Shown here one piece after another: positions 6,101 to 36,819 of a DNA stretch of 64,000 bases. Numbering within the stretch: the first letter of the stretch is position 1; each line of letters opens with the position of its first letter. The notes beneath the pieces are model-generated. The model was given only the letters and a program-made list of their open reading frames with translations, did not search any database and was not told where the DNA came from. The DNA is from an uncultured Candidatus Poseidoniales archaeon (lineage in GTDB: Archaea; Thermoplasmatota; Poseidoniia; Poseidoniales; Thalassarchaeaceae). The position numbers and the translations under genes were made by a program. The stretch is from NCBI GenBank assembly GCA_963934015.1, contig CAWVWT010000001.1, forward strand, positions 120,574 to 184,573, written 5' to 3'.

Positions 6101-7666
6101 GGATACTGATTGTTCGCTCGGCCACATGCCTACGGGACGGAATCCCAACTCTTGTTCAAACAAATCCATGCCATTCTGCAAATGATTGGTAACATCTTCT
6201 GGCCACGAATCTTTGTCGACTCGAATACCATCCTCAAAAGTCCATCCATCCATCATCAATAATGGCATAATCGGATGGTAATACGGTGTTGTCGTTAACT
6301 CAATTTGTCCGCTGGCAGCCAGTTCAGAATACATGGGGAGGATGTTCGACATGTGCGCTTCTTGAGCATCAAGGACGTATGTGAGATCAGGTAACGTGTA
6401 TTGCCCATTCTGCATGAACAAGTCAATCAAACCTTGATCACGGTGACTGGAATTGTAGTCCCCTTGAACATAGGATGGGCTGAATTGATACAGATACCAC
6501 AGCACCTGTAAATCCAGAAAATCTTGTGAACCAAGAAGTGTATCATCCATGATTGTTGCAGGTTTCAGATTGTGCATCGTCATGCCATGCAATTCTGAAT
6601 AGCGTTGGCTGGAGGGGTAAACCCATCCGACACGCGAATCCTCAGTTGTGACATTGTAAATCCATCCTGAATTCCAGAATGATTGGAATTGCATCGTATG
6701 CAATTCAAGTGCAGTGGCATTGGGATAACCTTCTGAATTCCAAGAACGACGGGCAATATCTGTGTGTACATCAAGCACACCATTCTCAGAATAATCAAGT
6801 AATTGCTCAATGAAGGATGGCACCAGGTTGTACGTCACCTTGGTATCCGTTGTGGATAGAATACCAGGACTGTCCACATATTCAGTCATGGCATGAACTC
6901 GAACCCAAGGCATCTCGACCATTCCGGTCAACTTGTTTTTGTAATACGGTTGATGCTGGTGAAATACAATCGCTAGATTCAGTGCATCATCGACTTTCTC
7001 AATCGGGTTGTCCGAAGTTAGAATGGATACATTGGAACTGGATTGAGATGTTGACCTATTCTCAATTTGATACCAATGCGTGAACGCTTCAGCACCATTT
7101 TCTGAAGCCGGGTTCTCTTGCGGGAAAACGGTCCAAACATTACCCGCATCTTGCCATTGGGACCATGCGACAACACCGATATTCTCAGGGGAATCTATGC
7201 CATCCCATGGAATTGCAATTTCTGTGTTTTGATTGCCAGACCACCCAATCCACTCAGAGGGGGATGCGGCGCTGTCAACCCACCCAGTTCCATCATAAGT
7301 TTGCAAAGAAGAGTAGGAATTGTCCTCAAGCACAAATGCATGATCTGCTGCAAACGGAAGTGTCTGGGCCAGATTCCAGTTTTTTGACAATGGGCTTCCG
7401 CCTTCACTGGTGTTCAGATAAACAAACATATCCGCCCCTTCACTTTCACTGGCCCAATCGGTACCGGACCAACCAAGGAATAGATGCGTAGAATTCCAAG
7501 TCATTCGAAATGTCACAGCATTGGCATCAGAAGATTGGAATGAATCGTTAGGCCAATCACTCATATCCCCATCTAGTGTAATTTCGTCAGGGGTGGTGGC
7601 TGTAACCACACCTAACCAAGCCGGTGCCAGAAATAGTGCGACGAGTACGGCTGCGGTCCGATGCAT
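3191..7666 (-). CDS. Secreted, C-terminally membrane-anchored GH57-family alpha-glucan hydrolase (amylopullulanase-like) with large N- and C-terminal accessory domains
   Basis: Signal peptide MHRTAAVLVALFLAPAWLGVVTA. The GH57 signature LAIVFHQHQPYY is followed by a catalytic region. C-terminal TM (ISLMAIVVMILIAFI) is followed by RTRK and an acidic tail. Convergent 4-nt overlap with the PolD gene. Confidence 0.8.
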   Translation of the reverse strand: MHRTAAVLVALFLAPAWLGVVTATTPDEITLDGDMSDWPNDSFQSSDANAVTFRMTWNSTHLFLGWSGTDWASESEGADMFVYLNTSEGGSPLSKNWNLAQTLPFAADHAFVLEDNSYSSLQTYDGTGWVDSAASPSEWIGWSGNQNTEIAIPWDGIDSPENIGVVAWSQWQDAGNVWTVFPQENPASENGAEAFTHWYQIENRSTSQSSSNVSILTSDNPIEKVDDALNLAIVFHQHQPYYKNKLTGMVEMPWVRVHAMTEYVDSPGILSTTDTKVTYNLVPSFIEQLLDYSENGVLDVHTDIARRSWNSEGYPNATALELHTMQFQSFWNSGWIYNVTTEDSRVGWVYPSSQRYSELHGMTMHNLKPATIMDDTLLGSQDFLDLQVLWYLYQFSPSYVQGDYNSSHRDQGLIDLFMQNGQYTLPDLTYVLDAQEAHMSNILPMYSELAASGQIELTTTPYYHPIMPLLMMDGWTFEDGIRVDKDSWPEDVTNHLQNGMDLFEQELGFRPVGMWPSEQSVSPSMVQPVADVGIEWMITDELNLEESTDMSGQTIDVSIASNLATPWVTDDVAVVFRDRVISDRIAFQYGSMTPEAAVSDFLAYCDNIRQQLLDEGKDPSEHLLTVALDGENWMFMSDFQHHDNGRPFTEEWFSRLSTHPTVVTTTPGEFLEKNLTLPEIDVIGTGSWIDGTLSTWAGEAEESLAWQRTVEARQALVAFEAGNPNHAGLDDAWESLYIAEGSDWYWWYGLDQDSGYDEMWDVLFKVHLSNIYRAVNLDLPPYLLDLWTNPALPEIPYSGIIEPMIDGIALPGEWDGAAKYDAGDDDELLDIESFHLGYDASNVYVRVDLGSTPEDWESMDMDAMPDVSIYFMQPNAINFNEVETNFRTYYGNTVLGFPAKNMISFNFGELWEDGRAKYDIFEAKGKIGDSERWNLAGQSILGGCAADEVFEFQIPWSDLGLAPRYSTRVKVVTSWQNSFAYGDGTDVEIAPPAPAEMVMPDLEEWVTLLDIDDAVGDETGDGDYTYPLAGDFVPGAGLFDITHLKVSQSEWNARFEISFAEMTDYWGLANGFSHQIVQIYVDQGDTTYGETELLDGAYAVTHNDWAWEVAVSVTGEPGAVKSISASTGETSAKGIEVSADKDSNTITITVAKSVIGANIPEYRFIVVAGSQDGFGTGKWRDVDTDAKTWRLGGGADPSTADGRNYDPNIIDIVLDNTTSQTAMLGSYDVETQTYAVLTGIELPEVAQQVFGVSVSSITTSSAIISWSTTKSAIGVVNCSNNSFTTPMMFYSQALQVTGLDAGIAYSCSITVSDAPSVAISFNTSNEIDTTPPDLLNLAVEVIEGGSLRVTWYTSEGSTESIEVAGQSFAGDAVALRKNHDMTIFPYPDLTALETYTLTVTISDASGNMNTSSVEFVIEEEDAASPLPDSGSDQSEPDDDSDNKVNIGDLLGDPVVQISLMAIVVMILIAFIRTRKHELDYSMPIEDDLFED

Positions 7667-7725
7667 CGCTCCCGCGAGTCCGTTTCACATCAAAGGTTTT
7701 CCACCTCCCCTGCCGGAGGCCGGGT

Positions 7726-9015
7726 ATGCGCGAGGCGGGGATATTGTGTCACATCACATCCTTACCGTCTGGAAAGTTGGGTCCTGATGCCTTCACATTC
7801 ATCGATTTAATTGCCGAAGCTGGGATTTCCGTATGGCAAGTTTTGCCAATAACACCACCTGATGAACATCACAGTCCATATGCATCGACCAGCGCATTCG
7901 CAGGATGGGTCAAATTGTGCGACCCTTCCTTTGAGGATGACCCCGATCACGAATTGGTTCGAGATTGGCTCAGTGTCAATGCACACTGGGCATGGGATTG
8001 GGGACTGTATGATGTCCTCAAAGAAGCGCATGCCGAAAAACCGTGGTTTGAGTGGCCTGAACCACTGCGTGATCGGCATCCAGGTGCCATTGAAGAAGCC
8101 ATGCAGAGGTATATGCCGCAAATTCGAGGTCGAATTATGAATCAGGTTAGGTTCCAGCGGGACTGGATGATATTACGACATTATGCCACCCAAAAAGGTG
8201 TCAAAATGTTTGGTGATCTACCTATCTTCGTCGCCAGAGATTCTGTTGATGTTTGGGTCCGACCCCACTTGTTCCATCATGACGTAGTAGCTGGGGTACC
8301 ACCCGACTATTTCTCCGAGGATGGGCAGCGTTGGGGTACGATGCTATACGATTGGGATGCGCATCGTGAAGATGATTGGACATGGTGGAGAATGCGGATG
8401 GCTCGCATTTGCGGTCTGTTTGATATGATACGAATCGATCACTTCCGTGGCTTTGATTCTGCATGGACAATTCCCTTGGAGGAGGATACCGCGAGAAATG
8501 GACAATGGGTGAATGGACCGGGGGATGATATCCTCCAAGCCATCATCGATGTTTCCGGCGACACCCTGATTGTTGCTGAAGATCTTGGAATCATCCCCCA
8601 GAGTGTCACTGAGCTCCGAAAAAGACACAACCTTCCAGGAATGTCTGTACTCCACTTCGGATTTGGTGACGAAAATGACGATAATCCACACCGGCCCGAG
8701 AACCTCTCCAAAGATCGAATTGTTTACACTGGGACGCATGATAATGATTCGACCATGGGGTGGTGGGGTTCTGCAACACCCGAGCTCAAAGTACGCGTCA
8801 TTGAGGTTGGACTGGCTGGTGAAAATGCATGTGATACACTCATCAGATTGGCAATGGAATCTCCGGCACCTTTGGCAATTATCCCCCTTCAAGATATCTT
8901 ACAATTGGGTTCGGATTCACGAATGAATACACCAGGACAAGTTGCTGGAAATTGGGCCTGGAGATTTGATTGGCCTGAATTGGCCAATGGAAATTGGGAG
9001 AGCTTCAAACGCTGA
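7726..9015 (+). CDS. malQ: 4-alpha-glucanotransferase (amylomaltase, GH77)
   Basis: First in-frame ATG at 7726 (MREAGILCHITSLPSG...). GH77 motifs IDHFRGF, YTGTHDNDS and WVNGPGDD. The track ORF begins at an upstream GTG at 7624, giving a non-conserved extension. Confidence 0.88.
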   Translation: MREAGILCHITSLPSGKLGPDAFTFIDLIAEAGISVWQVLPITPPDEHHSPYASTSAFAGWVKLCDPSFEDDPDHELVRDWLSVNAHWAWDWGLYDVLKEAHAEKPWFEWPEPLRDRHPGAIEEAMQRYMPQIRGRIMNQVRFQRDWMILRHYATQKGVKMFGDLPIFVARDSVDVWVRPHLFHHDVVAGVPPDYFSEDGQRWGTMLYDWDAHREDDWTWWRMRMARICGLFDMIRIDHFRGFDSAWTIPLEEDTARNGQWVNGPGDDILQAIIDVSGDTLIVAEDLGIIPQSVTELRKRHNLPGMSVLHFGFGDENDDNPHRPENLSKDRIVYTGTHDNDSTMGWWGSATPELKVRVIEVGLAGENACDTLIRLAMESPAPLAIIPLQDILQLGSDSRMNTPGQVAGNWAWRFDWPELANGNWESFKR

Positions 9016-9069
9016 AAAGTGTCTAACCACTATGGGGTCAAATTCATAGGACTGTGGAAGCGGACCGAG

Positions 9070-10673
9070 ATGGTTGGAATGAGTATTGGCTACCTCTCTG
9101 CGGAAGTCGGTTTTGAAAGTGGCCTCCATACCTATTCAGGTGGACTAGGTGTACTCGCTGGAGATCACATCAAATCCGCGGCGGACGCTGGAATCGATCT
9201 TGTTGGCTGCACCCTATTGTACCGAGAGGGCTATGGTCGACAACACTTGGACGAGGATGGGAATCAGACTGAAACATTCGGCGAGATTGACCCGCTGGAG
9301 TATCTTTGTGACACTGGAGTGGAAATTTCACTCCCACTCGATGGGACCATACTGTATTCAAAAATTTGGAAATATCAAATCAAGGATTTGCCAACATACT
9401 TTCTCGACACCCGTCATCCAGATAATTCCCCTGCGCATGCAAATCTCGGAAATCGCCTCTATGGTGGTGATGATTCAACACGAATACGCCAAGAGTATCT
9501 GTTGGGGATCGGGGGTATTCGTGCTCTTCAAGCACTAGGGCACAAAATTACAGGTTTGCATCTAAACGAAGGTCACTGCACGTTTGCGATGCTCGAAATG
9601 TTACACCAAGGATGGACACGCGAAGAACTTCGACAGCGATGCCTCTTTACCACCCACACACCGGTTCCCGCGGGTCATGACCGATTTGGCTGGGATGCTG
9701 TGGAACATGTACTTGGAAAATTGCTGCCATCTGATGCAAGAAGACTTGTCAAGGACGACCAAAGTTGCTCGATGAGTCACCTCGCTGTAGCACTGGCGGG
9801 TCAGGTCAACGCTGTTTCAAATCTGAATGCCTATGTTGCGAGTGGAATGTTTGAGGATACACACATCCATCCGGTTACCAATGGTGTACATCACAAAACA
9901 TGGACCAGCCCTGCCATGGCTCGCCTTTTTGATATGCACCTCAAGGGTTGGAGATCTGACCCCACCACTTTAGCACACGCTGGACGAATTCCGGATGCTG
10001 ATTTGATAGATGCGAGACAAGAGGCACGCGCTGTGCTTCGGGATCTCGTCAAGATTTCAACGGGTGTCGAATTTCATGAAGACCGGTTGACAATTGGATT
10101 TGCGCGCCGTTTTGCGACATACAAACGGGCAAATCTCGTCTTTAGTGACTTAGAGAGGTTGCGTTCACTTGGAACGAAAAAAATTCAGTTTGTCTTCGCG
10201 GGAAAAGCGCATCCTCGTGACGAAGGCGGTAAACAACTCATCCGTGATATCTTCGAAGGTGCTTCACAGGTTGCAGATGAAATTCCGGTTGCTTTCCTCG
10301 AGGATTATTCGATGGACACAGGTCTAGCGATGACTAGTGGTGTCGACATTTGGTTAAACAATCCAATTCGACCCATGGAAGCGAGTGGAACTAGTGGGAT
10401 GAAGGCAGCCATGAATGGTGTACCCAACTGTAGTATTCTCGATGGATGGTGGCCTGAAGCCTGTCAGCATGGGGTCAATGGTTGGGGTATTGGAGAAGGT
10501 GAAGATGAACGAGATGATGACCGAGATGCAAAGTCCGTGTATGATACACTCGAACATGAAGTGCTGCCTGCTTGGAATGATGGCCCCGAACACTGGAATG
10601 ACCTGATGCGTGCATCCATCGCAACCAGTGCCCGATTTACAGGCGCTCGTATGATCAGTGATTATCTGCGGTT

Positions 10674-10701
<28 letters not shown>
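9070..10701 (+). CDS. glgP: Alpha-glucan (maltodextrin/glycogen) phosphorylase, archaeal short GT35 type
   Basis: YSGGLGVLAGDH near the N-terminus and the PLP-lysine motif EASGTSGMKAAMNGV. The track ORF starts at GTG 9019 and the first ATG is 9070. It follows malQ with a 3-55 nt gap and is probably co-transcribed. Confidence 0.85.
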
Positions 10702-13792
<3,091 letters not shown>

Positions 13793-13796
<4 letters not shown>

Positions 13797-14593
13797 TCCT
13801 TCGGGAAGAGGGTGTTCGCAGTTTCAACTATTTCGTCTATATGTTTACAGAGAAAACCCTTCACGAAATCATTCACAGGATTGTTATAAACGTCCAACGG
13901 CGCACCATGTTGTTGCAATTCACCGTCATTTAGAATAGCGATTCTATCTGCCAATGTCATCGCTTCAATCTGGTCGTGTGTGACATAGACAGTTGTGGTT
14001 CCAAGCGTATCGTGAATACGGCGAATCTCAGCGCGCATATGGTGACGGAGTTCGGCATCTAGATTGGAAAGTGGTTCGTCCATTAGCAAAACCTTTGGTC
14101 GGCGAATCAAAGCTCGACCCAGAGCCACACGCTGACGCTGACCACCAGAGAGTTGCTTGGGTTTTTTGTCGAGTTGGTCGGCTAGTTCCATCAATTTGGC
14201 CGTCTCCTGTACCCGCTTGACAATCTCTTCATCAGACAAACGATCTTCCCCTTTTGCCATGCGTAAACCGAAGGAAAGATTCTCTGAAATCGACATATGT
14301 GGATACAGTGCATACGATTGGAAAACCATGCCCAAACCACGTGCTCCAGGCGGTAAATCGTTCACTTTGGCACCGTCAATTCTGATATTTCCAGCACTTA
14401 CATCTTCAAGGCCGGCTAGCATGCGCAAAGTCGTTGATTTACCACAACCGCTGGGCCCTAAAAGAACAAGGAATTCGCCATCTTTAACCTCGAGATTGAG
14501 GTCTTTGACCGCCTCAAATCCGTTCTCATATCGCTTTGTTACACTTTCATATCGTACTTCGACCATAGTATCACCCTTTGACGCTCCCTGCAC
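13793..14593 (-). CDS. Sugar ABC transporter ATP-binding protein (MalK/MsmX-like) lacking the C-terminal regulatory domain (266 aa)
   Basis: Walker A GPSGCGKST, Q-loop, signature LSGGQRQRVALGRAL, Walker B LLMDEPLSNLD, H-loop. Start and stop overlap neighbouring genes (ATGA coupling). Confidence 0.88.
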
Positions 14594-15818
14594 TGAGTCC
14601 TTGAATCAAGAACTTCTGAAAAATGATGAATAATATCACTACTGGAATGCTCACCAAAAGGGAGGCGGCGGCAAAGTCACCCCATGCTTGACCTGTAGAA
14701 GAAATGAGGCTGGCCAGACCAACGGGGAGTGTGTACATGTCGTTTGAAGTATTGAATGTCAAAGCCAGAAGATATTCGTTCCATGCCGCTAGGAAACTGA
14801 ACAAGGCGGTTACTGCTACCGCTGGAAGTGAAAGTGGCAAGATCACCCGCCAGAATACTTCGAATTGATTGCACCCCTCCAGGAGAGCGGCCTCTTCCAA
14901 TTCCCTGGGAACTGTATCAAAGAAGCCCTTCAGCATCCAAACACAAAGTGGCAACGCGGTCACTGAATATGCGAGAATTAGGCCGAGACTTGTATTCAGT
15001 AACCCCAATGATTTCATGACCATGAAATAGGGAACTAGAATGATGATTCCAGGGAACATCTGTACTAGTAAGAAGGCAAACATCGATCCTTCGCGTCCAG
15101 AGAAACGGAACCGACTGAAGGCATAGGCTGCTGGCACTGCAAGGGCGAGACCCATCAGGGTTGTACCGATGCTAACAATCAGTGAATTGCGCATCCATAT
15201 CCAGAAACTCGAATCCCCACCGAGCATCTTGGAGAAGTGCTCTCCTGTCCAATCAGAGACACCAATGTCCCCCCCAAGGATATTGCCGGGTGACATCGCA
15301 ACATCAAGAATCCAGAGTACAGGAAAGAGGATGAGCATGACTGCATGTAGGAGTAAGATGTGAGAGCCGATTGCCCCCAAACGTGGCGCTATACGCTTGT
15401 TTCGAGCCAAACCATCCTCAGCACCCTGCACTGATAACAAGCCCTTGGCCCAAGCCGAAATGACAGGAGATGAAAGCCACCAAAGTGCAAGTATAGCGGG
15501 TCCGACCAGCCACAGTGTCGACCATATGTCGATGACCATCCGCATTCCAGCAGCATAGTGAATGACACCGATGATTAGGACAAGACCCGCTTTGCCTATG
15601 GCCACATCCCGCTTCCATGTCTGCTCACCATTTGGTAACACCAACCAGAGGACGAGTAATGCAAATGCGCCGAGCAATGAAAGTTGAAAGGCCAGTGAAT
15701 CTTCACGAATCCATTCAATACTCGAAAGTAGGATGTTGACGCCGACTGCGACGGGTAACCACAGACGAAGTGTCGCGATTTCCTGTGGTTCATACCACCG
15801 CTGTGAAAGGGACTTCAT
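14571..15818 (-). CDS. CUT1-family ABC sugar permease (MalG-like) with an extra N-terminal ~130-aa, 3-TM extension
   Basis: C-terminal two thirds match MalG/UgpE-type permeases, including the EAA-like loop ...LEEAALLEGC. N-terminal hydrophobic segments are LWLPVAVGVNILL, LSLLGAFALLVLWLVL and LVLIIGVIHYAAGMRMVIDIWSTLWLVGPAILALWW. Confidence 0.82.
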   Translation of the reverse strand: MKSLSQRWYEPQEIATLRLWLPVAVGVNILLSSIEWIREDSLAFQLSLLGAFALLVLWLVLPNGEQTWKRDVAIGKAGLVLIIGVIHYAAGMRMVIDIWSTLWLVGPAILALWWLSSPVISAWAKGLLSVQGAEDGLARNKRIAPRLGAIGSHILLLHAVMLILFPVLWILDVAMSPGNILGGDIGVSDWTGEHFSKMLGGDSSFWIWMRNSLIVSIGTTLMGLALAVPAAYAFSRFRFSGREGSMFAFLLVQMFPGIIILVPYFMVMKSLGLLNTSLGLILAYSVTALPLCVWMLKGFFDTVPRELEEAALLEGCNQFEVFWRVILPLSLPAVAVTALFSFLAAWNEYLLALTFNTSNDMYTLPVGLASLISSTGQAWGDFAAASLLVSIPVVILFIIFQKFLIQGLSAGSVKG

Positions 15819-18412
15819 GCACTCGCCTCCGTCGCATTACTTCGCTTCAGATATACCCATGAAAATACCACGAGCATGATGAAGATCACCACTGACCAAG
15901 CAGCAGCCACACCATAGGCACCATCTCGGAATGCAACATCATAGACGTATGTAATCAGAATATCTGTTTCACCGGGTTCTCCAAATCGCAGGTTGGGTCC
16001 ACCATCAGTCATCAAGTAGATGACATTGAACATATTGAATGTCCAAATGAATCCGAGAAGACTCAATGGGACCAGGGCACTCTTCAAATTAGGTAGTGTG
16101 AGGTGTCTAAATTGATACCAAGAACTGACACCATCAACCTCTGCCGCCTCATACATTTCGCTGGGTAGGGCTTGAATTGCACCACTCAATGACATCATCA
16201 TGAATGGGACACCCAGCCAGATATTGACGAGGATAACGAGGGTTTTCGCCCCAGTGGGATCCGCCAGCATCTCAAAGTCCGTACCCAATACTGAATCGAT
16301 GAGACCTTCCGGTTGTAGCATTCCTTTCCAGACGAGGACCGAAATGTATGATGGAATCGCCCACGGGAGTAGTAGAGCAGTCCGGTATGCGGTTCGCCCC
16401 TTAACGTGAGGGTTGTCTAGAACCAGAGCCAAACCAAGGCCGAGGCCGACATGTGCAACCACATTGGCAACAGTCCAAATCAATGTGAACAAGGTCACCC
16501 GTAGGAATCCAGCCGATGTGAGAACTGTGATGAAATTCTCCAATCCAACCCAAGTATTGTCGCCCAGATGACTTTGATCTGCGTTGGTAAATGATAACCA
16601 AATACCATAGATTACGGGATAGAATGTCAGTACAGCTAGAGCGATTAATGCCGGAGCGATGTAAGCGTGTGCAAGTTTACCTCGATGCTTTCCTGCCTTT
16701 GCATCACGCCATCTCAGAATGGCTAGTAAGGCAACCAAAGAGGCGACAATAGAACCGATGGCAAACAGGATTGGGCTTGTATCTGGAGAGGGCGGGAGAA
16801 TGTCACCGACTGATGTAGAGGCATTCATTGAGATGTGAAGAAATGGTTCTGCATTCCCCCCGTAGTCTACGAATACCTCAATGTGGTGAGTTCTGTCTGG
16901 AATCATTCCAGTAAGTCCACATGTCCAATTTACAGCTGATTGAGGCACAATGGCAACATCATTCACCCGCAGGAGTTCAACCCCTTCAGATGTACAAGAA
17001 TCATAACCCATACCGACTGTACCATTTCCATTGACCAACAATTCTGAATGGGATAAATTGTCAACATAAATATGGTAAGAAATTGCCAGCGAATCGGCTG
17101 GAACTGTGATGTCGATTGTTCTGTATCCAGGTGAGAGGGGGAACGGTTCCGAGGTCGAGTGTGAAGAGAGGATATTGTCCATCTCAGCATCAGCCCCACC
17201 TAGGGCATCCTGAGAACTTGCACTTCCACCATGGACTTGCTCAAAGGCGGTTCCAAGTGGACCGTAAACAATCGACATGGCACGTGTGGTAGGAGCCGGT
17301 GTTGCGAGTTCTGCTTGTGCGAGGAATCCAGATAGCACGGAATCAGCCTGGACTTCGGGGTCTGCCGCAGTCTCAATTGCAGTAGGCATTGTCATCGTAT
17401 CGAGTGCAAACGTCTTCTGCACAGAAGGTGATGAAAGATGCAGAGCAAGGTGGGTCGAGGATATTTTCTGCTCACTTTGTTTGGAAACAGACCACCCTTT
17501 GTAGGTGACAAGGGGCGATGCTCGCAATCCTGTTTCCTCAATAAGAGGGAGTAGTGTTTGCCCTACGTCGAGACGACCCGCCTCATATGTGGCCCAATTC
17601 CAAGGACCGTCAACAATCATGGCCGCTTCAGATTGGATAAATTGAGATTCCATGGTCTCACCAACAGTACCTGTACGTACAACCTCATGCTCTTGCTCAA
17701 GGGAAAGATACCAATCCAATGCTTCCGCACTCCCGTTTGAGTCAAGTGTTGGATTACCTTCCTCATCGAACAGACTGCCGCCAAATCCATTTTGGAAAGG
17801 GAACCACCAGTAAGCAACCTTGACTGGGATTGCCAAACCATACACATCACCTTGTGTGAGGTTTTCAGCAGCCCGAAGCATGTCCACTTGAGTCCAAGTC
17901 TCGTCAGGGTATGCAATGCCCTCAGCATCAAACAGTGCGCGATTGTAAAGTAATGATAGGCAATCTTGGCTGGCTGGAATACCATACAATGCGTCCCCAT
18001 ATCGCATTGCCTGCAATGCTTTGTTGTCATAGATGGCTCGTTCAGCAGGAGTAAGGTGGGGGCGAAGATCCTCTAGCAAGGGATATCCATCTACGCGGAC
18101 TTCACCGATTTCGCCCAATTGGTCACTGGAGAGGCGAACAAGGTCTGGTGCCTCCCCACCCTGCGCTGCGGTGAGATAAAGTTGATCGATGTCTCCAAAT
18201 GGAACTCCCGTAACTTCGATTTCCACATGTGGATTTGCTGCTTCAAATACATCAATTGCATCGAGGAAGGTGGCTTCTTCCTGACTTTCAGCCGCAAAGG
18301 AATGCCAAACTTCCAGTGAAATTTCAGAATCGTCAGCGGCAGCGACGAATGTTGTTGGTAATAGGAGAAGGAGAGCGAGTAATAGAGGAAAACTTCGCCT
18401 CTCCATTGACAT
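15815..18412 (-). CDS. In-frame fusion of a secreted maltose/maltodextrin-type substrate-binding protein, an Ig-like spacer, a TM anchor and a MalF-like ABC permease (865 aa)
   Basis: ATG start with signal peptide MSMERRSFPLLLALLLLLPTTFVAAADD. Residues ~30-430 are MalE-like SBP sequence. An Ig-like spacer follows. TM ILFAIGSIVASLVALLAIL is followed by RWRDAKAGKHRGK, then the MalF/UgpA-type permease (YPVIYGIWLSFTN... with an EAA loop). No in-frame stop lies between the modules. Confidence 0.78.
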   Translation of the reverse strand: MSMERRSFPLLLALLLLLPTTFVAAADDSEISLEVWHSFAAESQEEATFLDAIDVFEAANPHVEIEVTGVPFGDIDQLYLTAAQGGEAPDLVRLSSDQLGEIGEVRVDGYPLLEDLRPHLTPAERAIYDNKALQAMRYGDALYGIPASQDCLSLLYNRALFDAEGIAYPDETWTQVDMLRAAENLTQGDVYGLAIPVKVAYWWFPFQNGFGGSLFDEEGNPTLDSNGSAEALDWYLSLEQEHEVVRTGTVGETMESQFIQSEAAMIVDGPWNWATYEAGRLDVGQTLLPLIEETGLRASPLVTYKGWSVSKQSEQKISSTHLALHLSSPSVQKTFALDTMTMPTAIETAADPEVQADSVLSGFLAQAELATPAPTTRAMSIVYGPLGTAFEQVHGGSASSQDALGGADAEMDNILSSHSTSEPFPLSPGYRTIDITVPADSLAISYHIYVDNLSHSELLVNGNGTVGMGYDSCTSEGVELLRVNDVAIVPQSAVNWTCGLTGMIPDRTHHIEVFVDYGGNAEPFLHISMNASTSVGDILPPSPDTSPILFAIGSIVASLVALLAILRWRDAKAGKHRGKLAHAYIAPALIALAVLTFYPVIYGIWLSFTNADQSHLGDNTWVGLENFITVLTSAGFLRVTLFTLIWTVANVVAHVGLGLGLALVLDNPHVKGRTAYRTALLLPWAIPSYISVLVWKGMLQPEGLIDSVLGTDFEMLADPTGAKTLVILVNIWLGVPFMMMSLSGAIQALPSEMYEAAEVDGVSSWYQFRHLTLPNLKSALVPLSLLGFIWTFNMFNVIYLMTDGGPNLRFGEPGETDILITYVYDVAFRDGAYGVAAAWSVVIFIMLVVFSWVYLKRSNATEASA

Positions 18413-18437: not shown

Positions 18438-19124
18438 TCATTCCCCGCCTACGGCGGGGAATGGCTCACCTTCGAAGATATGCGGCCAAAGCAGCCGGCA
18501 ATCCTTTTCCTGAACGTGTACGACACCTGCTTGAGCAAATCCATCGATGGCAATTTGTTTCTGTCCATTAAATCCAATAAAACCTGAACCTGGAATTCTC
18601 ATACTCAAATCGGTATGGTTGTCGCCGATACTCACGATCTCAGCGGCGTCCAAGTTGTGAATTCTTGCCATTTTAGCGACCATTTCTTCCTTGTGATGGG
18701 CTGGAACTCTAACCTCACCATCATCCAACAAAAATCCATCATCATCATACTGAAACCCATTGGCGATCCAATCATCAACTTTGAGGATCTTCGCAATCGA
18801 ACCAATGAGAAGGTCGACACCAGCGCTAACAATGGCAACAAGAATACCACGTGACTGTAACGCTTCGACGAGTTCCCGCGCTCCAGTCATCAACTTAACG
18901 CCCTGATAACAGCGCATCAATTCATCTCGATGGATTTGAGGTTGCACACTCTTCCACAGGCCGATATCATCAGCCATGAATTCGGCGTCACTCACCTCTC
19001 CTCGAAGGAAGCGATCAAGCATTTCCCCACTATTCGTACCGAAATGCTCGTGAATAATTCGCCATGAGGAGATGGTATCGATCAACACACCATCACAGTC
19101 GAAACAAACAGCCTTGATTGACAT
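18438..19124 (-). CDS. HAD-superfamily hydrolase, phosphoserine phosphatase (SerB)-like
   Basis: ATG at 19124 (MSIKAVCFDCDGVLIDT, HAD motif I DxDG). ...AIVSAGVDLL..., K...GDNHTDLSM follow (motifs II-IV in SerB-like order). The track ORF starts 41 codons upstream with a non-conserved extension. Confidence 0.72.
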   Translation of the reverse strand: MSIKAVCFDCDGVLIDTISSWRIIHEHFGTNSGEMLDRFLRGEVSDAEFMADDIGLWKSVQPQIHRDELMRCYQGVKLMTGARELVEALQSRGILVAIVSAGVDLLIGSIAKILKVDDWIANGFQYDDDGFLLDDGEVRVPAHHKEEMVAKMARIHNLDAAEIVSIGDNHTDLSMRIPGSGFIGFNGQKQIAIDGFAQAGVVHVQEKDCRLLWPHIFEGEPFPAVGGE

Positions 19125-19182
19125 AGGAACACCGTATGTACCGACGAAAGGGTACCCGGTCAAGAAGGAATGGGAGCAAGGA

Positions 19183-19259
19183 CCCCACTCCGCCGAAGCG
19201 GAGTGGGGGCTCAGAGGGGGCACCCGAAGGGCGCCCCACACTGCCACCGTTCGGGTGGC
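19183..19259 (-). other. Three consecutive GC-rich stem-loops between the giant gene stop and the serB-like/ABC/amylase operon
   Basis: Stem-loop 1 (19183-19208): CCCCACTCCGC-CGAA-GCGGAGTGGGG, 11 bp perfect. Stem-loop 2 (19214-19237): GGGGCACCC-GAA-GGGCGCCCC, 9 bp with one A-C mismatch. Stem-loop 3 (19243-19259): GCCACC-GTTCG-GGTGGC, 6 bp. Confidence 0.6.
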
Positions 19260-19284: not shown

Positions 19285-22200
19285 TCAGAACACTGCCTTC
19301 AAACTTGGCGGGTTGTACTGCGCTGCGAATGTCATCAAGATGACAGCGGTACCACCAGCTGGTGCGTACTGCAGTGTAACCTGTGCGTTCTCAATGGTCT
19401 CACCAGATGTTGGGTCAACCATGCGTATTCGGATCTCGTCAGAGGCTCCAAATCCTGCGGAACAATCTACGTTACAATCGATGCTATCCTTGTAGGTCAC
19501 CAACGCTGAGCTGCTGCTCGGAGCGAATCCGTACACGCCATCAGGGTTGGCCAAACTGGTACGCTCACTGTGAACTGTACCTGCTTCATCAGTCCATTGA
19601 ACAACAACATACACTGCCTGAGTGGCAAGTTCATTGTCGTGAGTTTGGACGTTGATGTTCCAATACAAGTTACCCTGTGGATCATCAATCACTGCTTCAG
19701 GACCAAAGGTCAAACGAGGAGTTGCCTTTCCGCCTGCATCTGAGGCTAGGCTGTTTGCCCAGACATAGATTACACCGGACAGGACCACAGTGATTGCAAC
19801 GAGTAGAATCGTTGCAATCACTGGGCTAACTGCCGCATCATCGTCGGAGAGGGACTCCATGAGTTCCTCTTCGTCTTCCTCTCGGCGGGAGCCCATGAGG
19901 AGAGCGCCAACAAAGGCGCCCACCAGACTCACTGCCATGAGGCCCGGGGCGAAGCTAGCAACCGAGGTTGCTGGGCGAAGACGTACCATCTGTGGTAGTT
20001 CCTGTGCCGTGTCGTCCGTGGTCATGTTGTTGTCCTCCCAGTTCTTCTCTTCAAGCACAGGTCGACGGATCGAGTTGTCGATGTAATCATCTGTGTGCGG
20101 GTTAATCGTTCGCACTTCGATGAAGGCTCGTACCTGCTCAGATGGGTTGTTCAGAGTCACGTATCCGTTGATTACTGTCGTCTCGCCAATACCTGGCACT
20201 TCACCAGCGTCCCAGGACAGTGTTATCTGTTCCTGAATCAGTGTTGGGTTGTCGTCCACGTAGAAGCGAACCTGCACATCGTGTCCGTAGTTGTACAGAC
20301 TTGGGTCATCACCAGTGTTGGTGATGATCACGTCGACTGGCACGCGCGTACCTGGTAGCACTGCATCAATGGTGTAGAAGTCAAATCCAGGTCGCTCGTT
20401 GTCAGGTTGCCCTGCGTTCAAGTTACAGTCACCAGCTTCTTCACAGAATTGGTAATCTGGTTTTGCTTCCTCAACATTCGTTACCTTGATGTGAATCGTC
20501 TCACGGATACTGCGCTGCTCGTAAACACCTGAGGGGCTCTGCGCGTAGTCGATGTGACTTGGCGCTGAAGCCGTATCGTGCATCCAAAGATAGACAGTAC
20601 AGTATTCACCACTCGCAGGTCGCGCCTGGTGTACACCACCATCGGCGACACCGTCACCGTCTGCATCCTGCAAGAAGTCAATCTCGGTGGTTGGAGCATT
20701 GGTTGCTGCATCATCAATCAGGTCGATTGAAATTGTGTCATCATCGTTGTCCACTGTAATCGAGAAGTAGTTCTCGTAAACACACAAGGATGTCTCTTCA
20801 ACTGACCACATCAACTGGTCAACCGGGTGATCGTTGTCAGCCATAAGGCGACTTAGATCCCAAGTCAAGTTGCTGGCGTCCTCATCGTCTTCCGTGACTT
20901 CCCACATCCAATCTAGTTCCATGTTGCCGTTAGCAACTTCAACGAATTGGTTGTTGTTAGCATCGAAGTCCAAGATTTGAGGCTGGTCGTTGACCGGGTT
21001 CACAATGAAGTTCACCGTTACATCCGATGCTTCCGCGTTAGCGTTTGCATTGTCTGTTAGACTGAGCACGATGTCACAGTCGCCACCGGCCTCGTTCAAG
21101 GTGTTTTCAGCAATCGTGAGTACGTTCGACCCAATGTCTGAAGCGAATGGCACACAAGTGCCCTCATCCTCAGTCCATGTGTAGATCTGTGGTACCGACT
21201 CTGTGTTCCAATCCGTCTGTGACTGCTCGTTCGCCATATCGACGACGTACGAGCGAGTTGCGTTGGACGTGTCACCAAGTTCCTTGGTGATGAGACCGTT
21301 GAAGTTCTCATCGTGGACGTTCAGGTTACCGTCACCGTCATCATAGAAGACTGGTTGACAGTCGAAGCGGTTCGTGTTACAGATCTCTGGTGCGTCGTTG
21401 ACGTTCCAGATACCGACTTCCATCGTCTGCGTTGCGCTGAGACCGTCACTGTCTGTGACAGTCAGCTGCAGGCGGTGGCCTCCGAACTGATTCTCGAGTG
21501 TATCAACACCCAATGTCTGACCAGCCAAGCTGTAATCATACGGTGTTGGGTAACTGTGAGAGTTCGTCGAAGCGTCTGTCACAGACCACATCAGACCCGA
21601 GGATGCATCCTGATAGTCGCTGCCCTTGTCGGTTAGCGTAATCGTATGCGATCCTGAATCTTCATCGTATGATACATCTACCAAGTTCTCGATGATTGGC
21701 TTGGCACGCATGATATCGATTGTGATATCCTGGTTCGTCGTCATCACCAGTGGTGCGACGGAGTCGTCCCAGTCCCAGTAGTCGCCTTCCGCGTTGCGGA
21801 CCTTGACCATGATCTGGTATGCGTGTGGGTCACCTGGAGCGCTACCTGTGCCAACGTAACTTCGCAATAGCAGCAGGTGGTCATCCAGTGTACCGTCAGC
21901 GAGGTCGCCTCCAACGAGGTTGAAGTTACCGAACTGACCGAAGGTCTGACCCGAGGTTGTTGTTGCATTGAATGGCTGTTCTGGGAACACGCCTGCAACT
22001 TGACCATCTTGGCCGAATGGGGAATCCCACTGTACCATTGCAATCCAGCGAACATCTTCAGTTGGGTTACCAAGGCAGTCCCATGGAACACGGAATTCAC
22101 TCACTGGAGTGGTCGTGTACGGGTTGCCCATGAAGATACTCGAGGTGATTTGCGGGCAACTTGAGGTCACATCGACCCAGTTACCTGTTGGCATGACCTT

Positions 22201-25200
22201 GCGCAGACCCCAGTTGTTGAGATCTTCCATCCACAGCATGTAGTCTGCCTTGATTGGCAGAGTGTGCTGTGAGTGCCAGTTGTCGCCAGTTGACGAACCA
22301 CCTGGAGCTGTGTCGAGGTAGAACAGACCATCCGTTGTCACGAAGGTTGGACCCACGAGTGCAACGAACATGTAGTTCGAATCCCATGTCACGCGCATGT
22401 GCGCCTGTGTGGTTGCGTTCACAGCAACTGCACCGGGCATCATGTCGTCGGCTTCGTTCAGCATGTTGGTACCGAGCCAATCCCAGAGGATACCATCAAC
22501 GGTGATGGTTCGGCCAGGGCTGCTTCGCCACGATGGGCTGACATACTCGGCGCGACCACCAGGCACAGCAACTTGCTCGCCTGTAGCGTAGTTGGTAGCC
22601 ATGGATAGGCTGCGGATGTACAATCCAACATCAGTGGCTGGGTTGCCCATGTGTAGAACGGTCAAGTCCAGGAGGTTGCCCTCGTGAACAATTGCGTCTG
22701 CATCGACAGTCAACTTGCTTGGCATCCACTGGCTAATCATGGAACCATTGTTGAGTACACCGTTACCGATACTGGTTACCGTTGAGAACGGACCTGCATT
22801 GATTTGTGTTGCAACGCCTCCACAGCTTCCCATGTTAGCTGCAATCCATGCTGGATCAGCTGAGTAACACGAGTAGGTGTCTTCCCACATGAGTGGGATT
22901 TCCATCAGACCATACAAGGGGTGATTGTAGTTGTGAATACCCGACATGTTCTCGATGGAGCCTGTAGCACCATTGATTGTCTTGAGGACTGTGTGTCCCT
23001 GAGCAAGACCGCCATTCCAACGGAAGTCGTCGTGGCCATCAGCAAGAACACCAACCGCAGCATTGACCGATAGTCCGGTCATGTCAAGGTCGTGGAATCC
23101 GCTCTCAGTCACAGCATTGAGACCTACACCGTAGGTTCCGTTGGCTACAACTGTTGCACCGTTCGTTGATACATCGACGTTTGTCACTTCAACAGCTGTT
23201 GCATCACCGAGGATGGTGGTGCCGCCTGCCATGTGCAGGTCACCGCCTTCCATAGCAAGACCAAGACCGTATCCAGTGACCATCACACCGTTCAGTGTGA
23301 TGTCGTCGCCGCTACCCAAGATATCGATACCAGTTGTCTGTAGGTTGTTACCTTGACAATCTGCGACATTCACTGAGCCAGTCATCGTCGTTACTGTCGA
23401 GCTGAAGTACGTGAAGTTGCCCGCATTCGTGAACTGATGCACGAAAGACGAACCGAGGTTCATCGTTCCGCTGTCCCAGCTCTCTGCTTGACCAGCATCA
23501 GATGTGGTCGTGTGTGGGGTGTTCGTACTACCATATGCACGAGATGTCCAGCGTACCGAGTCACCAGTACAGATACTGGTTAGGTGTGCTGGGCTGTAGG
23601 TACTCTGCTGGATGTCCACGTTGTGGATCCGACCTGCGCCGCCACCGAGACCGGTGTACACTGAGTTGTTGTCAGTAACCGTACATCCGTCGGAGTTGAC
23701 TGCGTTCATCACGGTCGATACCACGTTGTTTGCCATGAATACTTCATCCAAGCCACAGGCGTCTAGGTAGATACCAATAGCACTGGTTGGCAAACGGCCG
23801 GCTGAGAAGCCGATCGTGTTGTCATTGATGTAAACATCATTACCACTGGTAATACCACTAATTGCGATACCACCATCGGCATCCAGACAGGTATTACCCT
23901 CTATGGTTCCCGAACCTGCTAGCGCGTAGATACAAGCATGTGATGCATCTGAATCACCAGTAATATGGTTGTTCATGATGGCCCAATCTCGAGCACCGCG
24001 CATGTAGATTGGATTGTCAGAGGACAACGTGTTATTCTCGAGGTTGAGCCCGAAGACCGTGTAGTCCTGAGTGTATACCGTATATCCGCTCAGACTCGAC
24101 ATGGTGTTGCCGCTGACGATTGGATCGTGCGAGTTAGCATTGAGGTAGAACCACATGCAGAGGTTTGCACAATCTTCCATGCTGTTGTCACTAACTACCA
24201 GGTTTCGCTGACCGTTACCACCGTAGTAGGTGTTGGTCGCGTAGTAGTTGCTAGGTACGAATACACCAACACCACAGTTAACCATCGTGTTACCCGAGAT
24301 TACTACATCATCGTATCCAGCTGTCTGGATGCACATGTCATCGTAGTAAACCGAACTTGCACCGTTTGGAATGTTGGTTGCTGAGTCATAGTGGACCAAC
24401 AGACTGTTGGTCACTTCTAAGTCACCGTTGTTCTGGTAGTAACCACTGCCAGTTCCAATCGCTTCCAAACCGAGCAAATTGCTGTTGTTGATGTGGAAGT
24501 TACCGTAATTGGAGGTTCCAGAGTATCCTACACGGAAGTGACCCTTCACAGCACCCTTGTCACACATTGAGATGATTGTTGTGTCGTCCATGTATACGTG
24601 ACCCGTGTATGGGTATACTGTGTACATCTGGACCTGACCATTGGAACATCCCGTTGTGAAGACAGTGGAACCATTCAGCGAGACTGAACCTGATCCGATG
24701 TCGAAGTAATTGAACGGCGTGTCCATCTGAATGATCATGTTAGACATGTCATTTTCAGAGTTGTAGTAACCAATCTCATGAACATTGTCAACCGTGCGGT
24801 CACTTCGATAGTTCAAACCAGTACAAGCGGCCTGCAAATCGTAACTTGTCGTCGAATAGCTGTAACACGTACGCGCGTCAATCGATGCGGTCAATGCGGT
24901 GTTAGCCGTATTTCCTGGTGCGTCGCTTAGCGAGATTGTGTTCATTGCATATCGTATGTCAATGACCGAGCCTGATGTGTAGGCAATGGTTGCAATTGTG
25001 ACCAATTGGTAGCCTGCGAGGTTCGGTGATGTGATACCTGAACTGTCCTTCGACCATACGACGAAGGACATACCGATAATGTCACCATTGCTGTCAGTTC
25101 TACCAGAGTCAACTGCCATGTTGTCGGCATCCAGAATCTTAACTGGTGCATCGTCAACTCCGCTTCCATCAGCAGTGATTTGAATATCCAACGCACGTAG

Positions 25201-28200
25201 GCGAGTGAACTTCGACATGTCACTGGTCGTTACCTTGGATTCGGTGATATCACCTTCAAGGTAATCCATCCTTGCACTGCCACTCATGGCCACATCTTGC
25301 GCGTTACCAGTCATGGTTGTGTCAGACATCGACATCATACCTGAACCGTCGTGGGTAATACCCACGGCGTTATTGTTCAGATTCAATCCGTCAAAGCTCC
25401 AATCAGCATCGTTTGTAGCGAGGACCTTCAGACCACAGTAACCTGCGTTCTGGATGGTTCCACTCAAATCAAGATTCATCGACTTCGATAGAACAACACC
25501 GTCTTGCGACTGGTTGTCTAGGTCAACGTTGCTTAGAACCAACTTCCCACCTGCTGCACTGCCCATGCGGACACCGTAGCGGCCATCATCAACAGTGATC
25601 TGGTCCATGGTAGCACCTACGCTACCTGAGACGAGAATACCCTCATTCACCGGGTTGGTGATGGTGATATCACTGAAGGCACCGGATGCGATGTCGCCAC
25701 CGATATCAATACCAGTATCTGCACCGGTGATTTGGCCGTTACTGATATCTGCAGTACCGAAGTCACGACTGTAATCCTTACTCAATAGATCAGTAATCGT
25801 GCTGCCCGCGCGGACAGTGATGTCCAAGCGGTCTTGGTAGTAGTCTGCACCGTAGTGGACCATGTCCACGTACATGACAACCTGCTCGATGCTTGAGCTG
25901 CTGGTGTCAACAACCGGGTAAGTCATTCGATATCCTGCTGGCACTGGTGTTGCTGGACCGTATGCGTAACTCTGGCATACGTTGTAGCTACCCCACATTC
26001 CGTTGAATCCTTCAGGAGGAGCAAATGCTGTTCCTGCGTGGTAGAAGCTAGGCCAGTAACTACCCCAATACATGTATGGATAGTAGTTGGTGCTCGCCGT
26101 TACGCCAGGTACACTCTCGATTCGGAATCCGAATTCGTTCGGCTCGTTGTTGTAGTTACCATTCATTGTGTACGCTCCGCCGCCGTAGGCGACGAAGTAG
26201 TAGTAATACGAATACTGGTAGGAACCACCTGGGTTGTACTTGTAACCGTAAAGGTTGCAATCCCAAATCGGTGCACCACCGCGGGCGCCGCTCTCGTAAG
26301 TGGCGACACCGCCGGTACCCGATGCTGGGTCATTTGCGCTGTACGGATAGTAACCGGTTACACTCGAGTCAGTGACGTTGTTCAGGCCTGTGCCATCACC
26401 GTCATCGACTGCGATTCGCCAGCGATCTGTGGTCATGAAGTACTTACCGTAGTACGAACCGCGAGCTGGATCCGAGTTACCGCCACCATACACGATGTTG
26501 GTACCAAGTTGCACGTAGTTGTTGTTCTTCGCAAACGAAGTAATGTCAATTGCGTACGTGTTCCAACCTGCACTCTGACCGCTAAGGATGGTCGAGCGGT
26601 ACAGAGTTGGTAGACTCATACCACCATCGACGACCATACCGACTGTGTTGTCAGTCAGAGTAAATCCATCGATGGTTGGTGCTGCGTCAGTCACCTCAAT
26701 GCCCACTGCCGAGTTCTTGACAAGGACGTTTGAGAGGCTGCTCGCTGCCGTGTTCGTCATTCGAATACCGATACCCGAATTGACGTTTTGCACACCAGCA
26801 TTGTTGATAATCAACGTACCACCATCGACATCGATAGTTGCTGTGGATGCTGCAGCGTTTGGACTGCCATAGACAGTCGAACCGTTGCGCATCTCCACAA
26901 TGCCACCGTCGCCGACCGCAAGGCCGCCGTTCATGTCGCGGATTGAACCTGCATCAATGGTCAACTGACCATTGCTGGTTATGTCCATCTCCCACCCATA
27001 TACACTGGACTGAGCCTTGATGTGACCGAAGTCACCATCGTGCTCACTGATGAGCAACTCAGCACCATTTAGCAATGTGATGGTTGGATTGTTGGCTGAT
27101 GTAACGTTCATGCGTAGCGAAGTTCCCTGAAGGTGTACACTGCATCCGTCCAAGACCATGTCCGCGGACAAGGTGATGATTTGACGGGTGTAGGTGTAGT
27201 ATCCATTCAGTGACGATGCCGAATCGTTGTTGCTGAAGAACGTACAGTCCTTGGTTGCGCCACCGAAGTCCATCGGGAATGCCTCAAGCTGGAGGTAAAC
27301 GTGTGATCCAACCTCAAGAGGTAGGTCACTCGATGGGAAATCCGGGTTGTGGCTTGCTGTGTACCATAGGTCCGTTGGTGTCGTGACGTTCTGACCTGCA
27401 CCACCCGCTGCACGGAGGGTATGGTCAGTGTACGATGCCGAGGAACTGGTTGCACCAGTGTTGTCACGCTCGTAAAGGTCTGTGACTAGCCAAACGTTTG
27501 CTGCTCCAGCGCCATCAGTCCTGCTGGTGCCGATTTCGAACAATTCTGTGCCTGAGCTGTCGTGAACCGCTGCTGCAACGTTGTGGTTTGCCTGGAAGGC
27601 GTTACCACTGTTACCTGAACGATAAACTGAGACGGTTCCAACGCCACCGAAGTAAATCTTGGCGGAACTGGAGGCTGCGTCGACCCAGCAGACCGATGTG
27701 TCGGCTTCATTGTTGGAATCGAGACAATCGTTACCATCGAAGTTCACATCAATCAAGCGGATGTCACCGTTTGTTCCAGCGCTTGCAAGGTTATTGCCCC
27801 AGCTGGTCATACCTGTTATGGTCATCTCAGCGACTGTCAGAACACTGTTACGCGCGTACGCGTAGTTACTGTTGCTCGAGTCACCAGCCATTGTACCATC
27901 TGAAATGGTCACAACGTTGCTGCTAGCTGACGATGCGCAGTTTGCACTGACCCATGCGTCTTGAGAACCATCACCGAGATTTACATCACTGAGAGTTACC
28001 CTCCAACCACAACCATTGATTGTGATTCCGGATGCACCAACAGAGTCTCCAGAGACCATGTTTGAACTTGGTGCGGTACCCGACAGTTGTAGGGCGCCTC
28101 CAAGATCGACATTGTCCATGCTTGCTGGCTGTGTGCGTGCCATTGTAAGGCCGCCATCAGCGCTGACACCATCCATGGTCCATCCTGTTGCACCAATTGC

Positions 28201-33090: not shown

Positions 33091-33423
33091 TCTAGATACC
33101 CCAGAGTGTCCTATGAACAGATGTTCGACGTTCTGACGCAGATATAACCGTATGGGTGCAAACTCTTTGATTATCCAATTCTGTTCGGTAAACTGCGTAG
33201 GAATTATTGAGTGCCTGAAATGCCCAATAATTAGTGGTACAAACAATTTGTAACAATCCAAAAGATGAGGGGGGTTTCCAATGGCAATTACAAAATAAAT
33301 GATGATTTGAACGAATTAGAGGGAATTAAATTAATCACTAATCCGGCTCGCAGTAAGCCAGATTACCTCGCGAATAATGTCGGAGCTTCGGGTTTTCCAG
33401 ATCATATTCGAATTACCTGAAAC

Positions 33424-36772: not shown

Positions 36773-36819
36773 TTTACAGTCCTCCCTCACAGTGGGTGCT
36801 TCGCCACAGAAAAACTTTG

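Follow-up and report, generated by a model that had tools for sequence, protein, structure and literature searches.

The closest described system to the transporter treated here is the natural MalE-MalF fusion of Bdellovibrio bacteriovorus, for which biochemical data and the structure of the MalE domain (PDB entry 6FFL) were published by Licht et al. (2019; Res Microbiol 170:1-12; PMID 30193862) and are summarised in a review (PMC6906923). According to that review, the fusion fixes a 1:1 ratio, the transporter is active as a fusion and its ATPase is further stimulated by added soluble MalE (PMC6906923). The P2 loop of Escherichia coli MalF is described there as an immunoglobulin (Ig)-like extracytoplasmic domain, which binds MalE throughout the transport cycle (PMC6906923). 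The OpuA/GlnPQ-type importers of Lactococcus lactis are alike in that a covalent link fixes the stoichiometry and provides a high local receptor concentration (PMC3971661; PMC8276074). For the Poseidoniales, the features listed by Rinke et al. include a 'maltose transporter and associated glucanotransferase', and a fusion is not remarked upon there (PMC6461757). Nothing specific on a MalE-MalF fusion in Marine Group II (MGII) was found in the literature searched. Here, a gene on the minus strand at 15815-18412 is described, which joins a MalE-like binding protein to a MalF-type permease. It lies in a stretch of 64,000 nucleotides (nt) from an uncultured Candidatus Poseidoniales archaeon of the MGIIb family Thalassarchaeaceae (assembly GCA_963934015.1, contig CAWVWT010000001.1, positions 120,574 to 184,573); this whole stretch is called the window, and all coordinates refer to it. 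With a probability of about 0.85, the gene belongs to a CUT1 type I importer for maltodextrins or alpha-glucan oligosaccharides, whose binding protein is permanently tethered to the MalF-type subunit.

The region 15815-18412 is a single uninterrupted open reading frame (ORF) of 865 codons, which encodes a signal peptide, a MalE-like domain, an Ig-like domain, an anchor helix and a MalF-type core, in this order. The signal peptide (residues 1-29; 18326-18412) was recognized by a hydrophobic segment at residues 6-28. The MalE-like substrate-binding domain (residues 30-415; 17168-18325) is predicted to be extracellular. It matched Pfam SBP_bac_8 and SBP_bac_1 over residues 42-357 (E-values of 7e-23 and 9e-21) and the NCBIfam models GanS and MalE over residues 28-413. 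The best PDB match was 6FFL, deposited as 'Maltose/maltodextrin transport permease homologue' (E 1.5e-30), followed by Thermotoga MalE1/2 and other maltodextrin-binding proteins. Hence, the binding protein is of the SBP_bac_1/SBP_bac_8 type related to maltose and maltodextrin binders, as is usual for CUT1 importers. Export by the Tat pathway was considered and rejected: the window has the motif ERRSF, but a twin arginine is present in only 20 of 117 orthologues.

The permease part matched its models over residues ~580-860, with Pfam BPD_transp_1 at residues 658-852 and the MalF model at 617-859. Its six-helix core (15815-16675) carries the EAA loop YEAAEVDG...LP, and the second membrane subunit of the operon, a different BPD_transp_1 protein, has EEAALLEG as its EAA motif. 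NCBIfam MalF (E 5.7e-58) and MalG (E 1.1e-53) were the best models for the two subunits, both with scores under the equivalog cut-offs. In the PDB, the core resembled MalF (2R6G_F) and SugA (7CAD_A). The MalF model PRK10999 was matched only at its positions 260-516, the portion past the enterobacterial P2 loop; by this profile match, the P2 loop is not present in the core.

Hydropathy analysis of the fusion protein gave the signal peptide at 6-28, one isolated helix at 544-569 and the six helices of the core. The isolated helix, TM0 (residues ~546-569; 16706-16777), appeared as helix 546-572 in the full-length AlphaFold model and is predicted to run from outside to inside. It is followed by the cytoplasmic loop RWRDAKAGKHRGK, which is rich in lysine and arginine and therefore places the binding protein and the spacer outside the cell. 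The predicted topology would thus join an exported binding domain to a permease core which starts inside. An earlier note on this DNA had proposed that a binding protein is fused in frame to a permease of the MalF type, with a signal peptide, an Ig-like spacer, a transmembrane (TM) anchor and the binding protein outside. Each of these elements was supported, by the Pfam and NCBIfam matches to both parts, by hydropathy and the charged loop, and, for the spacer, by structure prediction.

The spacer (residues 430-535; 16808-17125) was modelled alone with AlphaFold, after the full-length model had been discarded for docking and fold search due to its low confidence (mean predicted local distance difference test, pLDDT, of 49). 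The domain alone was predicted as a beta-sandwich of nine strands with a pLDDT of 88.5. The top Foldseek matches were Ig V-set-like domains with TM-scores of ~0.5-0.56 and E-values of 7e-3 or worse, which allows assignment at the level of the fold class only. The domain contains the invariant cysteines Cys473 and Cys498 as well as N-x-S/T sequons, and it is homologous to the N-terminal ectodomain of the unfused permeases described below. Two flexible linkers frame it. The first, SSHSTSEPFPLSPG (residues 416-429; 17126-17167), sits where the signal peptide of the permease stood earlier, as judged from aligning the junction with those of the unfused operons L083 and L081; pLDDT was below 50 at residues 417-425 of the full-length model. 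The second is a low-confidence segment of the same model at residues 536-545, between the Ig-like domain and TM0.

The product resembles the Bdellovibrio protein in its general layout. Both belong to the maltose-family CUT1 importers, both have one N-terminal MalE-like domain in frame with the MalF-type subunit, joined via an odd number of extra helices, and both imply a heterodimeric MalF/MalG pair and a 1:1 ratio. They differ in the linker and in the host, as the Bdellovibrio clade has no Ig-like ectodomain and its host is a bacterium with a periplasm and not an archaeon. The earlier note had regarded a tethered-binding-protein importer as uncharacterised for the maltose family, a claim which the Bdellovibrio precedent contradicts. 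The implied rarity was not borne out either. At least 25 other clusters (50% identity) among the top 150 representatives have a binding protein with a MalF-type permease behind it. A profile built from bacterial fused proteins gave 786 matches, and the 120 listed are all ~700-760 amino acids (AA) long with both domains; the names among these include Myxococcota, to which the bacterial fused homologues mainly belong, Oligoflexia, metagenome-assembled genomes (MAGs) of Alphaproteobacteria and isolates such as Pyxidicoccus fallax. In the clade of the Bdellovibrio domain, the anchor helix follows ~20 residues after the binding protein and no Ig-like ectodomain is present; the bacterial fused proteins have one or three extra helices.

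The binding domain of the window shares 25% identity with 6FFL, versus 46% between 6FFL and P0136, a protein of the bacterial fused clade to which the Bdellovibrio domain belongs. Neighbour-joining trees were calculated for the binding-protein part and for the permease part; in them, the MGII fusion falls inside the clade of unfused proteins, apart from the bacterial fused clades; these are simple trees without support values. The identities and the trees do not group the archaeal fusion by descent with the fused proteins of Bdellovibrio and the Myxococcota, and they argue that it arose independently and with another linker architecture.

Other unusual arrangements were seen among the homologues. 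In P0137, P0142, P0147, P0150 and P0155, one polypeptide of 832-1127 AA unites an Ig/FN3-like ectodomain with the cores of MalF and MalG. In P0140, a binding protein is inserted past the first helix of a permease, and P0256 has two binding-protein domains in tandem. P0146, P0167, P0182 and ~60 others are MalF-type permeases of 500-680 AA with N-terminal extensions of 200-370 AA, which have no detectable similarity to the binding protein of the window.

Compared with MalEFGK2 of E. coli and Salmonella, the MalF and MalG cores with their EAA loops are homologous, and an ATPase of the MalK type and a binding protein of the MalE type occur in both. The MalF-type subunit has an Ig-like ectodomain in both systems, but in E. 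coli it is located between TM3 and TM4 of an eight-helix MalF, whereas it is N-terminal in the window and followed by the extra helix and the six-helix core. By analogy, the N-terminal ectodomain may have the P2 loop's function. The binding protein of E. coli is a free periplasmic protein; that of the window is fused to the permease. Furthermore, the MalG-like subunit of the window has four additional N-terminal helices and its ATPase lacks the C-terminal regulatory domain. OpuA/GlnPQ-type transporters are homodimers with two or four binding domains; these domains are small and of cluster F, and the transporters are members of the amino-acid and osmoprotectant families. The window instead has separate MalF and MalG genes, which imply a heterodimer with a single binding domain, and this domain is large and of the sugar type SBP_bac_1/8.

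The MalG-like permease is encoded downstream of the fusion gene (415 AA; 14571-15818, minus strand). Its core (14571-15383), with an EAA loop, matched NCBIfam MalG at residues 146-415, Pfam BPD_transp_1 at 224-407, and SugB and MalG in the PDB. The preceding ~145 AA (15384-15818) had no Pfam match. Hydropathy averaged over 71 orthologues gave four segments in this extension (16-35, 43-59, 74-90 and 98-118), and the loops at 1-18, 61-70 and 121-148 are rich in lysine and arginine. With the positive-inside rule, these data predict four helices with the N-terminus inside. An N-terminal extension had been suggested before, as a block of three TM helices; its existence was confirmed, while the number of three was rejected, given the four hydrophobic segments and the even number required by the topology of the MalG core.

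The ATPase has the motifs of the MalK/UgpC type (ABC_tran, E 1.3e-35; Walker A GPSGCGKST, signature LSGGQRQR and Walker B LLMDEPLS). It matches the UgpC and MalK models, which fit it best, at positions 1-236 of ~360 only and ends ~20 residues past the nucleotide-binding domain, so that the C-terminal OB/TOBE regulatory domain of CUT1 ATPases is missing, as had been proposed in the earlier note. The maximal ORF (13793-14593; 266 AA) begins at GTG 14593. This start was rejected, since orthologues and profile alignments begin at ATG 14566, which is most likely the actual start and gives a protein of 257 AA (13793-14566, minus strand). In almost all loci with a complete gene, the ATPase match comprises ~250-257 residues and is followed by the GH13 gene, leaving no space for a C-terminal domain. 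The choice of the start also affects the gene junctions. The stop codon of the fusion gene overlaps the MalG start (ATGA) and the ATPase overlaps the GH13 gene (GTGATG), but MalG and the ATPase are separated by a gap of 4 nt when ATG 14566 is taken. The proposed coupling of all four genes by ATGA-type overlaps therefore applies to two of the three junctions.

The conservation of the fusion was determined on protein and on genome level. A protein-collection search with the fusion protein gave 407 matches, of which the best 120 are considered here. Of these, 117 exceed 840 AA; their identity ranges from 61 to 100%, and both Pfam domains are present in nearly all matches listed. They are filed under the names Thalassarchaeaceae, Poseidoniales and Thermoplasmatota, which suggest an origin in MGII. 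When one genome per GTDB species was scanned, 216 related stretches were obtained. The best 80 loci were analysed, and all are named for, or closely match, Poseidoniales (both families). Binding protein, spacer and permease lie in a single stop-free frame in 80 of the 80, with neither a stop nor a frameshift between them, and the operon is the same alpha-glucan operon throughout. The claim of a continuous frame and its test by orthologous operons were thus both answered in favour of a fusion. Downstream follow the extended MalG, the short ATPase and the GH13 gene, with GH77, the phosphorylase-like gene and GH57 nearby. The fusion is the standard form of the alpha-glucan transporter across MGII.

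A stop or frameshift lost by an error of assembly, sequencing or gene calling in one MAG had to be considered, given that the source organism is uncultured and that the genes of the closest unfused operons overlap by 4 nt, where one indel could in principle join them. However, full-length fusion proteins which are 100% identical or nearly identical (P0001-P0004) originate from independent assemblies, the 80 species-level genomes agree in their frame, and the junction alignment differs between fused and unfused genes by the loss of a signal peptide of ~30 AA, which is more than one base. An artefact was therefore ruled out for all practical purposes. Two of the loci are titled as alphaproteobacterial MAGs (L037, Salipiger bermudensis; L047, Rhodobiaceae bacterium). 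Both contain a complete MGII operon with 64% identity to the window, and their naming is probably due to binning contamination of the public records.

Unfused relatives were obtained by an exhaustive search of the cluster representatives. They are closer to the fusion of the window than any other fused protein. The unfused binding proteins (419-434 AA) share 46-54% identity with the window. The unfused permeases (480-545 AA; 44-60% identity) have a signal peptide of their own, an ectodomain of ~150 AA, an anchor helix and a six-helix core. Three such operons (L083-L085) lie on contigs whose proteins are named Poseidoniales, and encode the HAD protein, a binding protein of 431-434 AA, a permease of 494 AA, MalG (419 AA), the ATPase (257 AA) and GH13, with a GH77::phosphorylase gene convergent to the operon. 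In a further operon on a contig of 128 kb (L081; GCA_021773055.1, JAJFKV010000012.1), a binding protein of 423 AA, a permease of 498 AA, MalG with 415 AA, an ATPase of 354 AA and two GH13 genes were found. A TonB-dependent receptor and an AraC regulator identify this contig as bacterial. It also carries an FG-GAP/ASPIC protein beside the operon, and its permease core shares 66% identity with that of the archaeal operon. The bacterial relative points to a fairly recent transfer, in one direction or the other, between marine bacteria and MGII.

These sister operons have the order (HAD), binding protein, MalF with Ig-like ectodomain, extended MalG, ATPase and GH13 in common with the window. They differ by separate genes, by the signal peptide of the permease, by a lipobox in the archaeal binding proteins and, for L081, by an ATPase which keeps the regulatory domain (OB_MalK/CysA_C_terminal). 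In L083-L085 and in L081, the stop codon of the binding-protein gene overlaps the start of the permease gene (ATGA). The window and L083 share 53% identity in the binding protein and 66% in the permease; across the sister operons, the binding proteins share 45-53%. In the junction alignment, the fused gene has neither the stop nor the permease signal peptide of ~30 AA, and the linker SSHSTSEPF takes their place, while TM0 is kept in fused and unfused relatives alike. The ancestral operon would accordingly have encoded a lipoprotein-type binding protein, the stop codon of which overlapped the start of a permease that already had a signal peptide, an Ig-like ectodomain and an anchor helix, and the fusion would have arisen when the stop and the ~30 AA signal peptide of this permease were lost.

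In a neighbour-joining tree of MalG and ATPase, calculated without support values and rooted on the bacterial operon L081 by assumption, the unfused L083 stands outside a monophyletic fused clade. One fusion event before the fused Poseidoniales operons diverged, retained since then, thus appears to account for the distribution. The other peculiarities of the operon can be ordered relative to it. The tail of the short ATPase, CKHIDEIVETANTLFPKE, is conserved and common to L083, so the truncation of the ATPase is older than the fusion. The MalG extension has homologues in L083 as well as in L081 (E 6.5e-29), which dates it back even further than the short ATPase.

In the unfused archaeal relatives, the binding protein carries the lipobox IIPGC, followed by a linker rich in glycine and aspartate. 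The lipobox (PGC/SGC) is kept in the fused orthologues of MGIIa, and its cysteine is lost in MGIIb, including the window. Its loss in the clade of the window fits the fusion having taken over the anchoring. A protease which cuts in the first linker (~416-429) or near the membrane after export would instead yield a separate binding protein, lipid-anchored or free, of the kind known from ordinary archaeal and Gram-positive importers. The linkers on both sides of the Ig-like domain (417-425 and 536-545) are poorly conserved and of low confidence, the MGIIa lipobox could keep a released binding protein on the membrane, and a free form can work, as soluble MalE stimulates the fused transporter of Bdellovibrio (PMC6906923). 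We nevertheless consider such processing quite improbable. A single frame in 80 of 80 loci from two families speaks for selection on the covalent link itself, and neither a conserved protease site nor a dedicated protease gene was seen in the operon. MGII archaea have no outer membrane; a cleaved binding protein without lipobox, as expected in the clade of the window, would therefore diffuse into the seawater.

For a permanently tethered binding protein, the following course of events is proposed. The signal peptide would direct export of the fusion product, such that the MalE-like and Ig-like domains come to lie outside, TM0 leads back to the cytoplasm and the MalF-type core follows. The complex would consist of the fusion protein, the extended MalG-type subunit and two short MalK-type ATPases. 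As the membrane subunits are heterodimeric, each transporter should carry exactly one binding domain (1:1). Surface-anchored GH13 and GH57 would cut alpha-glucans at the cell surface; the binding domain, held by two flexible linkers and TM0, would capture the oligosaccharides and dock on MalFG. Docking would trigger ATP hydrolysis by the dimer of short ATPases and thereby import, and the sugars would be processed in the cytoplasm by GH77 and the phosphorylase.

Maltose or maltodextrin as substrate is suggested by the operon context (GH13 with CBM48, GH57, GH77 and phosphorylase), and the starch/maltodextrin context which had been read from the window earlier was supported. A fused transporter for another oligosaccharide, such as arabinogalactan or galacto-oligosaccharides, cyclodextrins or trehalose, is unlikely, though slightly less so than cleavage of the linker. 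GanS, a galacto-oligosaccharide binder, was the best NCBIfam match of the binding protein (E 3.9e-29, far below the model cut-off), ahead of MalE, the IMG family is named 'arabinogalactan oligomer/maltooligosaccharide transport system', and the permease cores are similar to SugA and SugB of the trehalose transporter as well. Against these resemblances stand the translational coupling of the operon to a GH13 gene with a glycogen-binding module, the presence of GH57, GH77 and phosphorylase beside essentially every relative, and the ten best solved matches of the binding-protein part, which are binders of maltose, maltodextrin, cyclodextrin or acarbose.

Several points weigh against a tethered maltodextrin importer and were included in the above probability. 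The specificity was deduced mainly from the gene context, as the binding domain is only 25% identical to the Bdellovibrio domain and the KEGG orthologue assigned by annotation pipelines reads 'arabinogalactan oligomer/maltooligosaccharide'. The topology was derived from hydropathy and charge rules, and the full-length AlphaFold model is poor (mean pLDDT 49). Intactness of the 92-kDa product, its assembly with the MalG-like subunit and the ATPase, and transport of maltodextrin are conclusions drawn from sequence. Concerning the origin, a fission in the L083 lineage would be the less parsimonious alternative to one fusion.

The GH13 alpha-amylase (1040 AA; 10674-13796, minus strand) is a cell-surface protein with Pfam matches to Alpha-amylase at residues 213-582 and to AMPK1_CBM at 37-117. 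Its signal peptide is followed by a CBM48-like glycogen-binding module and the catalytic domain, and a (PE)n linker leads on to the C-terminal TM anchor (1004-1032); the gene is syntenic in the related loci. At residues ~948-980, ~15 Pro-Glu repeats and an acidic, serine-rich stretch precede the C-terminal anchor, which looks like a stalk distancing the enzyme from the membrane. A large GH57 enzyme (1491 AA; 3191-7666, minus strand; Pfam Glyco_hydro_57 and an SLH-like Glucodextran_C) is probably located at the surface as well, and its gene flanks the locus in many relatives. Convergent to the operon are the genes of two cytoplasmic proteins on the plus strand, a GH77 4-alpha-glucanotransferase (7624-9015), which matched Pfam Glyco_hydro_77 with an E-value of 1e-126, and, at 9019-10701, an alpha-glucan phosphorylase-like protein (Pfam Phosphorylase). 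This pair is conserved in synteny in almost all loci that extend far enough to include it. The phosphorylase-like protein is short: its 560 AA cover positions 315-579 of the 713 positions of the Pfam model, and a length of ~550-570 AA is kept across the loci. The two genes are adjacent in the window and in other loci, and form one gene of 1046 AA in L083 (13052-15485), L084 (10598-12236) and L085 (10259-11897). This polymorphism of fusion and fission runs opposite to the fusion state of the transporter.

Upstream of the fusion gene, at a distance of ~25 nt, a HAD-family hydrolase of 269 AA is encoded (Pfam HAD/Hydrolase; maximal ORF 18438-19247, minus strand, with a likely start at ~19124). 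MGIIb loci, some MGIIa loci and the unfused L083-L085 likewise have a HAD gene upstream of the transporter. In the window, the HAD gene and the transporter operon are directly preceded by a giant ORF of 4658 AA (19285-33261, minus strand). Its sole Pfam match is the N-terminal motif of archaeal type IV pilins, which lies at residues 4477-4519 and thus oddly close to the C-terminus. The operons of L012 (2217 AA) and L083 (3247 AA, plus a protein of 1401 AA with Pilin_N) also have very large ORFs upstream. Further genes of the minus strand encode a protein of 1092 AA without Pfam match (33512-36790) and, beside it, a MacB/FtsX-type permease of 1543 AA with a very large extracytoplasmic region (36905-41536). 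A PolD small-subunit-like gene (1650-3194) is further support for an archaeal origin of the window.

The architecture itself was studied by experiment before, in Bdellovibrio, and is found widely in the databases, and nothing is overturned by the present results. What is new here, at the level of sequence, is an archaeal and apparently independently evolved fusion with an Ig-like linker architecture, a MalG extension and a truncated ATPase. It would be the second natural MalE-MalF fusion of independent origin, with fused and unfused sister operons and a precisely defined junction. Such a pair is suited for testing the effect of tethering and of a 1:1 stoichiometry on transport kinetics. As a tentative proposal, to which we give somewhat less than even odds, the importers of MGII and a few related bacteria may form a distinct sub-class, characterized by an Ig-like ectodomain with an extra helix, which would dock the binding protein as the P2 loop does, a MalG module of four helices, an archaeal ATPase without regulatory domain and an independently welded binding protein which replaces lipid anchoring. 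If true, this sub-class would be an adaptation of a planktonic cell without periplasm to very dilute substrate.

MGII archaea are among the most abundant archaea of the surface ocean and are uncultured, and their capture of carbohydrates is known only from gene lists. The locus described here would provide them with a complete and strongly conserved route for alpha-glucans, consisting of surface amylases, an importer with a tethered receptor and cytoplasmic processing enzymes.

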